This document shows positions 40,575 to 51,159 of a stretch of DNA of 64,000 nt, in pieces. Source of the stretch: a virus. Its lineage: Duplodnaviria; Caudoviricetes. Each line of letters begins with the position of its first letter. The first letter of the stretch is position 1. A program made the translations under genes and the position numbers. The stretch spans positions 27,076-91,075 of IMG/VR virus record IMGVR_UViG_3300037067_009374; one strand, given 5' to 3'. The notes beneath the pieces are model-generated. The model was given only the letters and a program-made list of their open reading frames with translations. It ran no database searches and was not told the origin of the DNA.

Positions 40575-41386
40575 TTTTTCTCTCCTTCTCTCTTGTAATG
40601 AAGTTGTGAGTTAAAAGCAGTATTGCCCTATCATCAGATTGACACAAGAACTAGGAGGTTTATGCTTTCCTCCTAGAATTTCTGTCAACATGAGTTTTAC
40701 TTCATATTCGTAATCCAGAAATGCTTAAATCATTCTCCATTTAATTGTAGTAGAAAACATGTCCAAAAAACAGTCAATCTCTTCCGTAGTTCCAGTAGCA
40801 TAGTACCAACAATGATCTATGATGCTATACCATTTAATCTTGAACAACTTATTCTTTTTCATTTTCATTTCTCCTTTTCTCTTGTGTTGTGATTAAATGA
40901 CCAATTATTGTCTACTCAAATAGAATGGACAATAACCCAACATTTAATTCTTGTGAAATTCCATGTAAGTATAGATTGAAATACCGTTGTAATATGCCAA
41001 ATCTTTTAAATAAGAAAACTCTTTGCTAAGACAATCCTCATTGAACATTCTTGCTCCATTTTTCTTGATATATTCCTTAAGCTTTTTCTTCTCAGTTTTA
41101 CCTAATTTCCTAATAGTTAGATTCATTTCATTTCTCCTTTTCTCTCGTTTAGAATAAGTTCACCAAAAACACTTTGCTTTGCAGTAAAGAAACCAAAATA
41201 TCGTGCAAAACACCCAAATTCGCAGTATAAAGTGTGCTTTTTCAGTCAGTAGCCATAATTCAGCATCACATTCTCTTAACCTATAAATGTCAAAAGAACA
41301 CAATTCAGAATAAGCTAAATAACTGAAAATATTAGCTTTTTAACTGTAATTGTATCTCTTTTCTCAATTGATACTATTAACATCAT

Positions 41387-41428
41387 AAAGCAGTCAGATA
41401 AACAGAATCAAGAGTTTATCTGACTGCT
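41387..41428 (-). terminator. Intrinsic terminator-like hairpin after ORF 41436-41870
   Basis: 15-bp stem AGCAGTCAGATAAAC/GTTTATCTGACTGCT with a short U run on the minus strand. Confidence 0.6.
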
Positions 41429-41435
41429 ATAGCTG

Positions 41436-41870
41436 CTAATAGTGAAGTATGTTGCGTGCGTTTGTCAAAGTCAGCGCGTCAAACTTGTGCACTCTGAAGT
41501 ATCGCTCATTTTTCGAATCAGTGATATACGTGCGTACTGTGATGACAGCGAGATCATTGAACGCTTGACAAGTAAGCGCGACAACTTCTTTTTGAGTGTA
41601 TCGCGCTTGACTGATAAGAGATTCGATAAACTTTACACAAGAGTGCTTATCAGACTTTGCACGTTTGACTTTGTTGCTCTTGTCGAGTCTGATAGTTGAA
41701 ACATCGACATTATGACGAATCGCTCGACGCTCTGCTATACGTTGCAGAGTGCTTTTCTTTTCTTCAACTACTTCGCGTTGAACGTAAGCACGTGCGTTTC
41801 TGTCAGTCAAAAGCTCTTCAATCGAAGCGTTTTCGACGTTAACAACTCTTTTACGAAGTATTGTTTTCAT
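41436..41870 (-). CDS. Early protein with no Gly/Pro/Trp; paralog of the C-terminal domain of 38408-39193
   Basis: KFIESLISQARYTQKEV...TVRTYITDSKN...LHY. Confidence 0.85.
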   Translation of the reverse strand: MKTILRKRVVNVENASIEELLTDRNARAYVQREVVEEKKSTLQRIAERRAIRHNVDVSTIRLDKSNKVKRAKSDKHSCVKFIESLISQARYTQKEVVALTCQAFNDLAVITVRTYITDSKNERYFRVHKFDALTLTNARNILHY

Positions 41871-41898
41871 TGTTTTCTCTCTTTCTCTTGATTAGAAG

Positions 41899-42090
41899 TT
41901 AATTGCGTGAAAATCGTTTTCTCGTCTTTTTCTTAACGTCTTTCTCACACTCATCACAGTAGTAACTAGAACTATCTTTCAAATCTTTTCTGCATATTGC
42001 ACAAGTAACAGAATCAAAGCGTTTAAAGAACTTACTTGAATTATAAAACTTGTTTCTCTTACGTAAAACTACATTACATATCATAAGCAC
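41899..42090 (-). CDS. Small basic CxxC-CxxC zinc-finger protein (no Gly/Pro/Trp)
   Basis: CAIC...CDEC; purine-rich upstream sequence. Confidence 0.6.
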   Translation of the reverse strand: MLMICNVVLRKRNKFYNSSKFFKRFDSVTCAICRKDLKDSSSYYCDECEKDVKKKTRKRFSRN

Positions 42091-42159
42091 TCATTTCTTT
42101 AATTGTTCAAAGCATTTTTAATTCTTATCTCTTATCTAATGAGAGTGCAAAAGAATGAA

Positions 42160-42333
42160 TTAGTGTTTGATTGCATCACACACAAAGTTTTTCAGCAGAA
42201 TAAAGTGAATTTCTCTGCTATTCTTTTCTATCAATTCGCGTGCAAAAGATACTTGTCTATTTTCTGCTATCATGTTTCTAAGCATTTTATTTTGATGTTT
42301 AAGTAAATCAATTTTCAAAGTGTCATCATTCAT
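42160..42333 (-). CDS. 57-aa early protein enclosed by inverted repeats
   Basis: Below the ORF-track cutoff. MNDDTLKIDLLKHQNKMLRNMIAENRQVSFARELIEKNSREIHFILLKNFVCDAIKH; SD-like GAAAGTGAG. Confidence 0.65.
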   Translation of the reverse strand: MNDDTLKIDLLKHQNKMLRNMIAENRQVSFARELIEKNSREIHFILLKNFVCDAIKH

Positions 42334-42447
42334 TGTATTTGCTCACTTTCATAGCACTCTCATTAAAAAAGAGATAAGACAAAAACACTTGTCTTATTCA
42401 ACTATAAATCTAATCAGTCTCTTATTTATGCATAGCACAAAAAGAAA

Positions 42448-42663
42448 TTAAATCAGACATTCTTTTGCAGAAAACATACAATCTCTAGATTCAATCAAGT
42501 AAGCTTCTAAATCTTGATAAACATCTTCTGACATTTCGCAATCGTCATTACTTGCACTTGTCAAAAGATTTTCTCTTCTTGCGCGTCTTATATCGCTTAA
42601 TAGTGTTGCAATATCATTTCTTAACTCTTCAGTTTGTTCGTAAAACAATTGTTTTGTTATCAT
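42448..42663 (-). CDS. 71-aa acidic helical early protein enclosed by inverted repeats
   Basis: Likely start 42663 (MITKQLF...) after GAAATGAG. Confidence 0.7.
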   Translation of the reverse strand: MITKQLFYEQTEELRNDIATLLSDIRRARRENLLTSASNDDCEMSEDVYQDLEAYLIESRDCMFSAKECLI

Positions 42664-42690
42664 ACTAAACTCATTTCTAGTGCTATGCAT

Positions 42691-42724
42691 AAAAAAGAGA
42701 CTGACTAAAAGTACAGTCAGTCTC
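42691..42724 (-). terminator. Terminator-like hairpin plus U6 upstream of ORF 42448-42663
   Basis: GAGACTGACT/AGTCAGTCTC stem followed by U6 on the minus strand. Confidence 0.65.
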
Positions 42725-42751
42725 AATTTTCAAGAGAAAAGAGAAAAGAGA

Positions 42752-43450
42752 AAACTTAATAGACGAACAAGAGTTAAGAAAAACTCTCTTGTTATATGAT
42801 TTAATCTCTTGTCTATCATCGAATATTGAAGTTTGTTGTGCACTCACTTCTTACGTTCTATACATGCTTAGTCTAAATTATCAGCTCTTACACTGATTCA
42901 AGTTCGCATGTAATTTTCATGCTTTTTCAGAGCATCAGTACAAAGCAAAAACTATTGATACTTTGCACTAGAACAGAACAAATAGACAAGAAAAGCACTA
43001 GCTTTCTATTCGCATTGTACTAACTATGCTTTTACTCGCATAGCATCAGCACAAGAGAACAAAACGCTTGTCAGTCTATTAAGTTTAAGTTGTCAATTTC
43101 GCATATCTGATTATCAGATAGCTACTTCGAAAGTAGTTTGCACTTGTTCACGCTTGCATTTCAGCTAACTGTTAGACTCAAATGAAAATGTCTTAGTCTA
43201 CTCGACATTGCAATCTACATGACTTGCTACTTTGACTCGTCAGCATCTACACTATGCTGACAGTAGCAATCAAAGCATTCTCAGTCTAACTATTCGCGCT
43301 TACTCTGCTTGTCTACTATCATCAGCAGTCAAACGATAGCGTCAAGTGCGTCTAGTTTGTCTCTGTCAGAGCTTGCTCTGTCTCGCGATTGCACTCTGAG
43401 AGTCTCTCGCTATATGCGAGTACAAGAGTAATCACATGCAAAAGTTGTAC
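42752..43450 (-). ncRNA. Candidate large structured non-coding RNA
   Basis: No ORF of 60 aa or more; nested long-range stems 42752-42764/43074-43086 and 42807-42816/42982-42991, plus many local hairpins. Confidence 0.5.
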
Positions 43451-43894
43451 TTAATTTGATTACTTTATTCTCAAAATTAACTTAACTTATTGAATTGATT
43501 AAAAGAAGAATAAGATTTAAAACACAATTGTCTCAAGATAGATGATACAATTATGTGATTAAAAAGACACAAAAATAAAAGAGTTATTATTAAAAGAAGA
43601 ATAAGATGTTAAAATAACTTTGTTATAACATAGTGTTACTAAAAAGATACAATGTTACTAAAAAGATAAGCAGAGTATAGCAGAGCAAACAAAGCACTCT
43701 CAGCATAGCGTCAAATAGCGTCTACAACGTGTCTAATTTTTGATTTAAGACACTTTCAGCATAGAGCACGAAGAAACACACACACAGAGCATAGCAGAGC
43801 AAACAAAGCACTCTAAGAACATACTCTATTAATGAAGTATAGATTAAGATCTTTTGCAAACTTAATCATACTAGTTTAGTTAAGATTAAGTTAC

Positions 43895-44235
43895 TGACAA
43901 TTATTGTCACCTAATCAGTTCAATATGAAACAAAGCAAAAACGATTGTGAAGAAACAAAACATTGATTTTAAAGCGTCTAATAAGCGTTTTTAGCAAGGC
44001 AAAAGTCAAAACGTATGTAACTACGTCTTAGCATGAGATCGTCGATTGACTAGTCATTCTTAGATTTAACAAAGTCAATAAAATCAATAAGTTAAAAAAT
44101 AGCGTTTTGTACAATATTCTACAAAACACTGACAATTATTGTCACCTAAGTAAAAACACTGACAATTAGCGTCACTGAAACAAGCAAGACACATATGTTG
44201 CAGTTTGTTGCATACGCTAGTGACAAAATATGTCA
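43895..44235. repeat. Four TGACA-N5-TGTCA palindromic boxes
   Basis: 43895-43909, 44130-44144, 44160-44174 (one mismatch), 44221-44235. Confidence 0.75.
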
Positions 44236-46366: not shown

Positions 46367-46726
46367 TCATGCATGTACCCCTGCTACTTTATTGTTTTTT
46401 GAACGGTAAGCGAAAGATGTTGGAAGTGATCTAATATATTCACCACGAGACATCCATCTACAATTATCTGGTGAGAAATCTTTATTCTCATCAAGTCTCC
46501 CAAGTATTGCACCCCCTTCAGGTAATTTGCCCATATCATCTAAAAAGTTCCGGAAAGACTCTAACCATCTTTTACATACTTTGATTCCTCTACCCCCATA
46601 GAGATCATATCTTATGTAATGTAGATTGTAACACTTGTTTTTCATACCGTAATATAAACGGTATTCAGCAGATTCGATTCCCCCAATAGTATGTCCATGA
46701 ATTACTCCTTTCCCGTTTCTTGCCAT
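46367..46726 (-). CDS. HNH-type homing endonuclease-like protein (possibly degenerate)
   Basis: YGGRGIKVCKRW..F.NFL.DMG...FSPDNCRW. Confidence 0.75.
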   Translation of the reverse strand: MARNGKGVIHGHTIGGIESAEYRLYYGMKNKCYNLHYIRYDLYGGRGIKVCKRWLESFRNFLDDMGKLPEGGAILGRLDENKDFSPDNCRWMSRGEYIRSLPTSFAYRSKNNKVAGVHA

Positions 46727-47498: not shown

Positions 47499-49391
47499 AT
47501 GTCAGTCCTTCCCATAAAAAGACGCCGAGTATCAACAGAACAAATCAAAGAAGAGAAACCTATAGGCAGAATAGCAAAATACAGGCAAGGCGCTGAAGGG
47601 TTTATATCCTGGTGTAATGAAAATGTAAGAATCAAGATATATCCAGAAGGTTCAGACATTGCTCAATGGTGTCCTATGAGCGAATTACCAGATACCCCTA
47701 ATCCGGAAACTGGTCGTAGTTATAGGGACATGTGGCTGTTTCAACAGGATCTAGTACGAGAAGCTCTTAAAATGGAAAACGGAAGGTTCATTTACCGACT
47801 TCTTGTTTTTTGTTGGATGCGTGGTGAAGGCAAATCATTACTCGCTTGTCTTATTCAATTATGGAAGTTCTTTTGTTGGCCCAAACAAGATATTGTTCTT
47901 GGTGCAAACAGCAAAGACCAGATTAAGTTTGTCCACTTTGATGTTATGTCTGATATAGTTCAACATTCTCCTGAATTATTGAAAATAGTAAAACAAAGAA
48001 ATGTTCAGCAAAAATCTATTCAAATAAAAGATAATAGTGGTCGTGTAGTAAGTACAATTCGTGCCCTGTCAAGCTTTTCAGGTATTGTATCAAACATTAC
48101 AGGATACACATTTTCTGAAATGTTCTCTATGAAAAATCCAAAGTTCTTTGTAGAGCTTGACGGTTCTATTCGTACAATATCTAATGCTTTAGGGGTGATA
48201 GACTCTACTGTATCCCCAAAACAACATCCATTGTATACAATGTGGAAAGACAAAGTAGAGAATAAACCAGGTACTGAAGGAATATTTTATTCGTACAGGT
48301 ATTCCGAAACTGGTGATAATAAAGATTGGTGGAATCCAAACATGACACAAAAGGAACTTGAGGGCTATAGAATCAAGTTTCCTTTTGGTGAATTTGAAAA
48401 ATTCTTTAAAAATTTGTGGTCAGCAGGTAAAATAAGGATATTCACCGATGAAATGATCGAAGCAATTTCCATTTATACTGTTGATGGGGCACTTGGTTGC
48501 CAAAATACTTTGATTGAATTACTTGAAGAAAAACATAGAATACTTAAACAAATCAGTGACCTTGGAATGAGGAATGTAGATGCCTTAGCTAGTAATGAAT
48601 CTCTTCTTGATGATATTGAAAAGAGATTCGGCAGAATAGCTAAAATCTATCAAATGCAAGATGCTTGGAATAGCAGACCTGCTACAATAGAAGAATTGAA
48701 TAAGCTTGGTACTTTATACGATACTAACTGGTCAATATTAGTTGGGATTGATCGTGCAGATCCAATGAAAACTCGTTCAAGTGCAAGAACTATGGTAACT
48801 TGTCTTGCAAAAGGTCTTCCTGGTTCTAAATCTAATCCATTTCAATTTTATGGAGAAGAAAATGTACCAAATTATTTGTATATAAGACTCCATCTTGCTG
48901 ATGTAACAGATCATTCTTTGGAAGGAATCAAAGAATTATTGAATCAATATCATGTAGAATATGATGGGATTGATTCAATTGGTGGAGAAAGATGGGGATT
49001 ATGGGATTTAGCACCCTGGGCAGAGGAAAGAAATATATCTTTTGATCTATTATTTCCCACTTATGATAGGCAAAGGTCTGCATTTGGTGAATTTTACTCT
49101 TCTGTATCAAAGGGATTGTTTAAATCTGCTCCTACAGGTATTCCTGGATCAAAATCAAGTGATATTCAGATAGAAGAAATGGAATTATTTGATCATGACG
49201 CACAAATAAAGTGGTTTGGTTCTCCTGAAAAAGAAGAAAAAGGTGGTGTGCAAGATGATTCCATCTTTGCAACAGGCTGGTCAATGTATTCAGGTAGAAA
49301 TCTGGGGGTAGAAAACTTCAAAGAACGTGGAAGTACTTCTCTTATCTTTGGTATATTCATTCAAGAAAAAGATGTTTTAGGAAAATATTAA
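47499..49391 (+). CDS. Terminase large subunit
   Basis: Walker A RGEGKS, ANSKDQ, nuclease motif VGIDRA...QDD; position before the portal gene. Confidence 0.85.
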   Translation: MSVLPIKRRRVSTEQIKEEKPIGRIAKYRQGAEGFISWCNENVRIKIYPEGSDIAQWCPMSELPDTPNPETGRSYRDMWLFQQDLVREALKMENGRFIYRLLVFCWMRGEGKSLLACLIQLWKFFCWPKQDIVLGANSKDQIKFVHFDVMSDIVQHSPELLKIVKQRNVQQKSIQIKDNSGRVVSTIRALSSFSGIVSNITGYTFSEMFSMKNPKFFVELDGSIRTISNALGVIDSTVSPKQHPLYTMWKDKVENKPGTEGIFYSYRYSETGDNKDWWNPNMTQKELEGYRIKFPFGEFEKFFKNLWSAGKIRIFTDEMIEAISIYTVDGALGCQNTLIELLEEKHRILKQISDLGMRNVDALASNESLLDDIEKRFGRIAKIYQMQDAWNSRPATIEELNKLGTLYDTNWSILVGIDRADPMKTRSSARTMVTCLAKGLPGSKSNPFQFYGEENVPNYLYIRLHLADVTDHSLEGIKELLNQYHVEYDGIDSIGGERWGLWDLAPWAEERNISFDLLFPTYDRQRSAFGEFYSSVSKGLFKSAPTGIPGSKSSDIQIEEMELFDHDAQIKWFGSPEKEEKGGVQDDSIFATGWSMYSGRNLGVENFKERGSTSLIFGIFIQEKDVLGKY

Positions 49392-49452: not shown

Positions 49453-51159
49453 ATGGTATTGAATAATTCCCCTTCATTTCAGGAGTTCAATGTGCCAGAT
49501 CAAGAGTTGCTAAAGCAGCTTGAATCTATTCCAGATGAAGTTCTAAAGCATCTTGCTTTCTCTGTGCCTTGGCAATATTCTACAATGGTAAATTCCTATG
49601 ACGAACCAACTGATCTTCGATATACTTCCAAAGAAACATTCGCTGATGACCGTGAGACATTGCAAAAAGCTTGCTGGGAAAAATTTCATGATAATCCTCA
49701 TGTAAATACTTCTGTTCGTGGTCAAATAGGTCGTTTAACTGGTCTAGGATTCGAGTTCTCCTCTGAAATTGAAGAAATCCAAACTGCCATTGATGAAATA
49801 TACTATGATTTTCGTAATCGCCTATATGACATGTGGCCAAAGTTCATCGGTAGAAATTTTATTGAAGGGGAATTATTCAATTGTTTGACTTGTCATGAGG
49901 ATGGATTTATAGAAGTTGATTTTGTTGATCCAAGTGACATAAATGGGGCAGAAGTAGATGGAGTTATTTATCATCCTACTAAAGCTTCAATGCCTCTTGT
50001 TTATGAAATAAAGATGCAAACAGGAAATGGTCAATATAGAAATGTGCAGATACCTTCGATATATGTAGCTTACGATCCAAAACTTATTAACGTAGCTTCT
50101 CAAAGCGCAAGTTTTAGCTGGGATATGCTTAAATTTGCAAAAAGTGCAAATTCCAAGTTCAAAGCACTTGGTGGATATTACAGATTTATTACTCATTGGG
50201 ATAAATCTTTAATGTCCAAAAGGAACACCTCCCATCTTAGAACTGTTTTAAGATGGTTAAATATATATGAACAACTGAAATTTTACGAAGTGGACCATAA
50301 AAAGTCTGCTGGAGCTTTTGTTTGGGTAGCTCAGTTTGAAGATTGGAAGAGTTACCGTTTATTTTTGGCAATGACAGATGCAGAAAAACAAAAAACTGGT
50401 TTAGGTGGCAAATATACACCAGGTAGTAGGTTGTTTCTTCCACCAGGTATAAAACTTGAAGCTGTAAATCCAAAACTTCCAAATATTACCGAGTCTGATA
50501 CTGATATCTTGCACATGATAACATCTGGTCTCAATGAACCAGAAGACGTTTCAACAGGTCAATCAAAAGGTACTTTTGCTAGTGTAAAGGCTAGTAGAGG
50601 TCCAATGAGTGATAGAACCTCTGATGAGGTAGCATATCATGATCGTTATGCAAGATATGACTTTTGGAAACCTATATTTTTCCTAAAATCTGCAATATCT
50701 GATTTTCCGAAAGAATTTTCTGTTAAAGAAGTGGTTGGGTTTAATAAAACTAAACCTATTGAAAAAGAAGTAAAGAAGAAACCTGAAGACCTTATAGAAA
50801 TTGCGTATCCCACCTCTGATACTGCTGATACTGAAACGAAGGCTAGAGCATGGCTTGGGGTTAAACATGGTAGTACGAATGATACTCTTGGTATTAGTAA
50901 TAAGACAATTGCACAGAAAATGGGGGTACAGAATTACTATAAGGAAAGATTAAGGTTAGAAACAGAAAAAATTCGTTATCCTGAACTTCAAGTTGCTATT
51001 GATCAGGAGATGTTGCAAGAACAAAAATTGAATCAAAAATTACCTGGTCAACCAAATGCTCCTAGCAAACCTGGCCAACAAAAGCCTACTTTGCCTTTGA
51101 AACGTAAACCAACACAACCTCAAAAATCTGAGGATGAGAACAATGCCGACTCCGAATAA
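49453..51159 (+). CDS. Portal protein
   Basis: 568 aa, between TerL and the protease; IEGELF motif. Confidence 0.75.
   Translation: MVLNNSPSFQEFNVPDQELLKQLESIPDEVLKHLAFSVPWQYSTMVNSYDEPTDLRYTSKETFADDRETLQKACWEKFHDNPHVNTSVRGQIGRLTGLGFEFSSEIEEIQTAIDEIYYDFRNRLYDMWPKFIGRNFIEGELFNCLTCHEDGFIEVDFVDPSDINGAEVDGVIYHPTKASMPLVYEIKMQTGNGQYRNVQIPSIYVAYDPKLINVASQSASFSWDMLKFAKSANSKFKALGGYYRFITHWDKSLMSKRNTSHLRTVLRWLNIYEQLKFYEVDHKKSAGAFVWVAQFEDWKSYRLFLAMTDAEKQKTGLGGKYTPGSRLFLPPGIKLEAVNPKLPNITESDTDILHMITSGLNEPEDVSTGQSKGTFASVKASRGPMSDRTSDEVAYHDRYARYDFWKPIFFLKSAISDFPKEFSVKEVVGFNKTKPIEKEVKKKPEDLIEIAYPTSDTADTETKARAWLGVKHGSTNDTLGISNKTIAQKMGVQNYYKERLRLETEKIRYPELQVAIDQEMLQEQKLNQKLPGQPNAPSKPGQQKPTLPLKRKPTQPQKSEDENNADSE

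Follow-up and report, generated by a model that had tools for sequence, protein, structure and literature searches.

The DNA analysed here, referred to as the window, is a stretch of 64,000 nucleotides that corresponds to bases 27076-91075 of the complete record (91,075 bp; CheckV 100%) of an uncultured phage, with about 33% G+C. The minus strand carries the replication and early genes up to position 46726, and the structural genes, including the terminase gene at 47499-49391, lie on the plus strand from 46893. The minus-strand gene array begins, beside the divergent promoter region, with an HNH endonuclease-like gene (46367-46726; PHROG 3377, E 2e-30).

Within the early genes a block of 2,630 nt (41280-43910) has zero GG or CC dinucleotides, as compared to 66.7 per kb elsewhere, and the same depletion was seen in the relatives L001, L011 and L012 described below. 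The block contains all three of the inverted-repeat brackets that are the subject of this study and looks like one early transcription unit. Near its downstream edge, right after a gene for a protein of 144 aa, there is an 18-bp hairpin (94%) at 41386-41431, at which the early unit probably terminates. The usual SD of this phage is AAGGAGA, and inside the block the SDs are the GG-less variants AGAAAUGAG and GAAAGUGAG. Neither the alignment of relatives nor a consensus scan identified a convincing promoter for the early unit, and a boxA-like antitermination signal had no match at two mismatches or fewer in 41280-43910, with a window-wide count that equals chance.

The GG-free block adjoins a non-coding stretch rich in iterons and palindromes. 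A palindromic operator-like site, GTGAC-N6/7-TTGTCAGTG, is present in three copies (43893-43911, 44127-44146 and 44157-44175), one of which is located exactly at the upstream edge of the block. Direct repeats of GTATCTTTTTAGTAACA-like units, at 43630-43680 and 43545-43570, are found in the non-coding leader and are kept in L011.

Three tandem brackets and their contents

The sequence-only reading of this region had reported a 24-bp inverted repeat with one mismatch around ORF1 (42448-42663) and an interrupted inverted repeat around ORF2 (42160-42333). Repeat scans confirmed both, as the arms of cassette 1 (42414-42438/42680-42704) match at 24 of 25 nt and can be extended to 43 nt at 81%, and those of cassette 2 (42123-42148/42354-42379) match at 24 of 26 nt. 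The scans also revealed a third tandem bracket that was absent from that reading, here called b3 (42752-42775/43063-43086; 21/24 matches), which encloses 287 nt without any ORF conserved among the relatives. The segments enclosed between these 25-bp inverted repeats span 205-287 bp, and the sequence differs from bracket to bracket. The three brackets are the top three long-range inverted repeats across the 91-kb genome, where whole-genome dinucleotide shuffles gave an expectation of 0.125 such repeats vs. the 3 observed, and when only the local GG/CC-free block was shuffled none of 1000 shuffles reached 21 matches. Elsewhere in the window, a perfect 19/19 long-range inverted repeat (49458-49476/49863-49881) lies within the 5' part of a structural gene for 568 aa (49453-51159). 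The parts of the bracketed region are as follows.

43063-43086, minus strand: 5' arm of the b3 closing stem, in the MFE structure of a 1-kb transcript and in a 20-pair consensus stem of three phages
42776-43062, minus strand: interior of b3, a partly conserved multi-stem RNA (alignment, RNAalifold)
42981-42993 / 42805-42817, minus strand: nested long-range stem within b3 (RNAalifold)
42752-42775, minus strand: 3' arm of the b3 closing stem (repeat scans, RNAalifold, 1-kb fold)
42733-42755, minus strand: invariant pyrimidine (CT) tract of 23 nt between b3 and cassette 1, identical in the window, L001 and L011
42691-42724, minus strand: terminator-like hairpin of cassette 1 (10-11 bp) and U6 tract; a terminator scan flags 42724-42697
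42680-42704, minus strand: 5' arm of cassette 1, composed of the hairpin 3' half, U6 and an 11-nt X module; the helix extends to 42718
42670-42678, minus strand: GG-less SD-like motif AGAAAUGAG of ORF1, beginning 2 nt past the arm
42448-42663, minus strand: ORF1, 71 aa from ATG, orphan, acidic (ORF list, searches, structure prediction)
42414-42438, minus strand: 3' arm of cassette 1, in which X' is followed by an A-rich run and by a repeat of the 5' half of the hairpin; helix reaching to 42400
42365-42397, minus strand: hairpin of cassette 2 (9-10 bp, weaker) and U6 tract
42354-42379, minus strand: 5' arm of cassette 2; the helix extends to 42390
42160-42333, minus strand: ORF2, 57 aa, orphan (ORF list, searches, structure prediction)
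42123-42148, minus strand: 3' arm of cassette 2; the helix extends to 42110

The coding cassettes have a common frame. On the 5' side it consists of the terminator-like hairpin, U6, the 11-nt X module and a GG-less SD, and on the 3' side of the ORF a pyrimidine tract comes first, followed by X', a run rich in A and a second copy of the 5' half of the hairpin. In both cassettes the 3' half of the hairpin is also part of the 5' arm, in agreement with what had been noticed from the sequence. Every X' is preceded by a pyrimidine tract and every X is followed by a purine-rich SD, and the AGAAAUGAG-class GG-less motif recurs in all cassettes. The hairpin and U6 ahead of ORF1 have the layout of an intrinsic terminator, with a G+C-containing stem followed directly by the U tract, and form a predicted terminator. 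Hairpin energies are -17.8 kcal/mol for cassette 1 and -9.7 kcal/mol for cassette 2; the L011 homologue of the cassette 2 hairpin has 13 bp and -16.3 kcal/mol. Past the 3' arm of cassette 1, part of hairpin 1 recurs in degenerate form. The final bases of the b3 3' arm are also part of the CT tract, the flanks of which are diverged in the three phages; the tract is anti-SD-like but has no CC, and the purine-rich RBS of the 144-aa gene (~41871-41895) is complementary to it.

ORF1 and ORF2 fill the space between their arms, with an SD-like motif 6-8 nt ahead of the ATG in each. Relatives of the two proteins were not found in Pfam, PHROGs, tblastn against phages, a search of 5.8 billion proteins or the ESM Atlas. 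Rfam returned only two chance-level miRNA matches, and none for the b3 interior. Both proteins are predicted two-helix hairpins (pLDDT 72.6 for ORF1 and 95 for ORF2) that are hydrophilic, charged and predicted to be soluble, and the ORF2 model had no significant structural match in Foldseek. Since an open frame of 47-71 codons is improbable by chance in this AT-rich composition (estimated at ~0.3-2%), the cassette ORFs are very probably translated. Their early position and their hypervariability suggest anti-defence or host-takeover roles.

Frames kept while the enclosed ORFs are exchanged

A scan with the CT tract returned the L001 contig and four other contigs. L001 (IMG/VR, 90 kb, terminase 78% identical) has a non-coding bracket and one coding cassette at the syntenic place, and so does L011 (Logan, 3.9 kb). 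The L012 sequence begins within a cassette, and L013 and L014 are identical to the window. Other searches added little: blastn of the region against GenBank phages and viral-contig searches with the 144-aa and 71-aa proteins gave nothing, a conserved 19-mer scanned against metagenomes matched only twice, by chance, in coding DNA, and a search with the Zn-ribbon protein encoded next to the cassettes recovered only itself. Contigs with the profile matches P0006 and P0009 were too short to reach the cassettes, and L010 and L004 had diverged too far for alignment.

Upstream of the conserved Zn-ribbon gene, each lineage has a different ORF in the slot (57, 60, 52 and 48 aa). These slot ORFs are also dissimilar to ORF1, and the five cassette ORFs are mutually unrelated. 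As judged from these alignments, the comparison shows that the frames were kept while the enclosed ORFs were exchanged between phages. In the three independent assemblies the cassettes have the same orientation.

The arms have changed together. Among the four lineages of the cassette comparison, a thin basis for covariation statistics in which some changes are of common descent, there are three variants of the X module with 3 differing positions, each changed on both sides, and 0 broken pairs. The closing stem of b3 has a 20-pair consensus with 9-10 doubly changed pairs among 3 phages, and the nested stem is conserved. Covariation of the arms in related phages, which had been proposed as a check, was thus found as compensatory changes without a broken pair. 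The L011 arms are a chimera: in both of them the hairpin part corresponds to window cassette 2 and the X part to window cassette 1. Neither X nor X' has a local pairing partner, and the X' that follows an ORF is matched to the X that precedes the same ORF and not to the X of its own intergenic region. This partner specificity across the ORF argues that complementarity is maintained over the gene and does not come from repeated palindromic terminators alone.

Such repeats proved rare in whole-genome scans of the relatives, at 1-2 per genome, and were located at the cassettes. In the distant L008 (terminase 45% identical), a 26/28 bracket (661-688/1252-1279) fits exactly around an orphan ORF of 172 aa (713-1231) that has the same type of SD, AGAAAGUAG, and the bracket stem is present in both the MFE and the centroid structure. 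This ORF proved not to be a homologue of the conserved 144-aa gene.

RNA folding and access to the ribosome-binding site

In the mRNA-sense strand the closing stems of all three brackets were found in the MFE and centroid structures, with fold z-scores of -7.1 (cassette 1), -4.8 (cassette 2) and -5.4 (b3). The three stems coexist when a 1-kb transcript is folded, as helices of 17 (+13 nested), 34 and 36 bp. The arm duplexes have about -35 kcal/mol vs. -10 to -18 kcal/mol for the local hairpins, and arm pair probabilities are 0.89-0.94 (0.59 in L001). In a growing-chain calculation the terminator-like hairpin was the MFE state until the 3' frame had been transcribed; X' then paired with the free 11-nt X module and the hairpin was displaced ten nucleotides later. 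The fold energies and the growing-chain calculation are both in line with the earlier suggestion that the long-range fold competes with the terminator-like hairpin. In the cell, ribosomes translating the ORF and co-transcriptional kinetics could prevent formation of the helix, and the terminator-like hairpins may stop most transcripts ahead of the ORFs.

Sense folds were more stable than antisense folds in 7/7 domains (summed -600 vs. -499 kcal/mol), and antisense z-scores were -4.2 for cassette 1 and -2.6 for b3, as compared to the sense values above. This asymmetry is partly inflated by the preference of RNAalifold for G.U pairs and by a slight excess of G+U in the sense strand, and as a sign of RNA-level pairing it is only suggestive. 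Read in the mRNA sense, the arm positions that are not Watson-Crick are U.G in most cases and A.C in one. From the U.G bias, the better sense folds, the absence of a recombinase gene (no Resolvase or Phage_integrase match in the complete genome), the distinct sequence of each bracket and the single orientation in three assemblies, we conclude that pairing of the arms has been selected at the RNA level, in the minus-strand transcript. Together with the covariation, this bears out the RNA-level action that the sequence-only reading had assumed for that strand.

The central proposal of that reading, that the 3' UTR seals the RBS of its own gene and silences it, did not hold in the models. Mean P(unpaired) from -14 to +3 hardly differed between folds with the 3' frame and folds without it (0.47/0.46, 0.59/0.59, 0.29/0.24 and 0.39/0.39), and the closed form did not raise the cost of opening the SD but lowered it (ddG -0.3, -1.2, -2.4 and -1.1 kcal/mol). 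A wider 30S footprint was harder to open only in L011 (+2.7), where GAGU of the SD region pairs with the 3' side with p ~0.75. The core stems stop 17-21 nt short of the AUG, immediately 5' to the SD. The extra pairing that had been proposed over the SD (AGAAAU/AUUUCU and its counterpart in the other cassette) can be drawn, but it has an occupancy of only ~0.03-0.4 and is inconsistent between the cassettes. Since access to the SD is unchanged or easier in the closed form, the bracket as modelled looks more like an insulator than a seal. Furthermore, b3 closes a domain without a conserved ORF, so the bracket design is not tied to an RBS.

Long-range helices as candidate processing or clamping stems

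Our best explanation is that the brackets form long-range helices of one early polycistronic transcript, which act as processing or end-clamping stems that frame swappable genes, a reading to which we give an even chance of being right. The transcript would be made from the minus strand, with each helix closing one domain: the b3 leader, ORF1 with its RBS, and ORF2 with its RBS. Each helix would have a core of ~25 bp, extended to 34-36 bp in context, with about -35 kcal/mol. During synthesis the local hairpin would fold first, and when the 3' frame emerges X' would take the free X as a toehold, after which the hairpin would be displaced. We consider the arguments for and against a host RNase III-type processing function, an end-clamping function or both to be nearly balanced, on the analogies given below. 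An idealised RNase III substrate has 22 bp (PMC3867540), and the duplex here, of 25-40 bp, is of sufficient length, as the earlier suggestion of an RNase III substrate implied. The complete phage genome encodes no RNase III gene, so RNase III-type processing would need host enzymes. Cleavage of the operon transcript would give messages of one gene each, whose ends are paired and protected, and the helix would insulate each RBS from whichever ORF is inserted. If the cut fell in the X region, the RNA upstream of it could fold back into the terminator-like hairpin, which would cap its 3' end. The frames would also serve as homologous landing pads for the exchange of small early genes.

A more far-reaching version, which we consider rather doubtful, is that of plug-and-play cassettes that work at two levels, where the frames as DNA are landing pads for swapping anti-defence ORFs between co-infecting phages and as RNA close, by way of a toehold that displaces the terminator hairpin, into an RNase III-cut stalk. 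Any ORF would then be released as an insulated, clamped mini-mRNA, and the array would be a recombinase-free functional analogue of integron cassettes that uses the logic of rRNA processing, again a tentative proposition that we would sooner doubt than accept.

Several known systems have features in common with these cassettes. In bacterial rrn operons, RNase III stems flank the 16S and 23S rRNA (PMC8708148; Young and Steitz 1978 cited there). The phage cassettes are similar in that flanks pair over hundreds of nt into a duplex of at least 20 bp and successive products are each placed in a stem of their own. For such a stalk the flank duplex spans at least about two helical turns, and the duplexes found here have 25-36 bp and about -35 kcal/mol. 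They differ in that the products are tiny ORFs and one RNA domain, the block has no boxA-like signal, and cleavage here is only predicted. The early polycistronic mRNA of T7 has five RNase III processing signals (PMC3867540), and there too an early operon is punctuated by dsRNA signals, from which the host enzyme yields single-gene messages with structured ends; the T7 sites are local intergenic hairpins, whereas here the strands flank the gene and the gene is in the loop.

Pairing between the 5' and 3' UTR of the same message is known from icaR of S. aureus, where the duplex is an RNase III substrate (PMC3868564), and from hbs of B. subtilis, where a 14-bp UTR-UTR duplex modulates access of RNase Y (PMC5737220). 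As in these messages, both UTRs of one transcript would pair over a long range, but the icaR 3' UTR covers the SD, which here is predicted to be open (with partial pairing in L011 only), and in contrast to both examples the duplexes are 25-40 bp long, form a tandem array and have frames that are conserved around exchangeable ORFs. The membership in the hok type that the sequence-only reading had favoured is not supported. The tac-fbi interaction of hok/Sok (PMC9841398) is similar in its 5'-3' long-distance interaction, in a metastable early hairpin that is later replaced and in its alternative partners, but the cassette proteins are hydrophilic helical hairpins and not hydrophobic toxins, no overlapping mok-like leader ORF was seen, and the SD is not sequestered in the predicted closed structure. 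As for an antisense RNA, a consensus scan of the plus strand showed only chance-level promoter-like matches. PeSL elements of T4-like phages are direct repeats with a sigma-70 promoter that recombine into mini-circles (PMC2839356, PMC4122927). They share with the frames conserved motifs with a terminator-like stem-loop that flank orphan early genes and mark swap boundaries in a hypervariable region, and they differ from them in that the flanks here are inverted, promoterless and selected to pair with each other; a scan gave no promoter-like site between hairpin and ATG (~45 nt). Invertons differ in that no recombinase is present in the genome here. By analogy, the element would function as a processing stalk of the rRNA type or as a clamp between UTRs, and it lacks defining features of hok, icaR, PeSL and invertons. 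The literature that was searched gave no account of stems that enclose ORFs in tandem in the early operons of phages.

Other explanations of the brackets have to be weighed against this. That the 3' UTR pairs over its own SD in an icaR- or hok-like manner, giving a pulse of translation followed by silencing, RNase III destruction or both, we consider unlikely. The pyrimidine tract and the purine-rich SD do allow 4-6 weak extra pairs, the GAGU pairing in L011 is of this kind, and icaR is a proven precedent where 3'UTR-SD pairing creates an RNase III substrate (PMC3868564). Against these stand the unchanged P(unpaired), the lower cost of SD opening with the 3' frame, a core stem that ends ahead of the SD, the same bracket around a domain without a conserved ORF, and proteins that are not hydrophobic toxins. 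It is quite unlikely, in our judgement, that the pairing has no function and that the arms are left over from PeSL-like recombination between palindromic terminator or regulatory motifs flanking the orphans. Such an origin would fit the conserved frames with swapped ORFs, the chimeric frame of L011, the degenerate copy of hairpin 1 after the cassette 1 3' arm and the behaviour of PeSL motifs in T4-like phages (PMC2839356, PMC4122927), but it does not account for X and X' that have no local partner and are each matched across the ORF, or for compensatory double changes without broken pairs, and the repeats are inverted, not direct, in frames without a promoter-like site.

The hairpins could also be true attenuators that grade expression of the operon, with 3' arms that dismantle them later or are irrelevant. 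A canonical hairpin with U6 does precede ORF1, hairpins of -16 to -18 kcal/mol are present in 3/4 cassettes, and the hairpin is the MFE state before the 3' arm appears. The 3' arm is made ~250 nt after the termination decision and therefore cannot regulate it, so that the attenuation by this arm that had been proposed earlier is kinetically implausible. Such a device also leaves unexplained the selection on X:X', which is outside the hairpin, and no hairpin with a U tract was seen before the 5' arm of the b3 and L008 brackets; we regard it as very unlikely. An element that acts as DNA (an inverton, the terminal inverted repeats of a mini mobile cassette, or an ssDNA or cruciform signal in the first-injected DNA) is highly improbable. 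The geometry, 25-bp inverted repeats around 205-287 bp, is that of invertons, and the location in the GG/CC-free block beside the iteron- and palindrome-rich stretch would suit this explanation. It is contradicted by a genome without a serine or tyrosine recombinase, by the distinct sequence of each bracket, which means that no single recombinase site fits, by the absence of target-site duplications and by the same orientation in three independent assemblies; in addition the strand asymmetry (sense U.G and better sense folds) indicates RNA.

Taken together, we favour the processing or end-clamping stems. If the helices work as inferred, one transcript would express rapidly changing first-strike genes with equal stability and a protected RBS, whatever the sequence of the gene. 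The finding corrects the assumption that all 5'-3' fold-backs are silencers of the hok or icaR kind. If true, it would extend rRNA-style excision by flanking stalks to protein-coding messages, and co-varying arms that bracket an ORF would be a sequence-independent signature of hypervariable early or anti-defence slots in uncultured phages.
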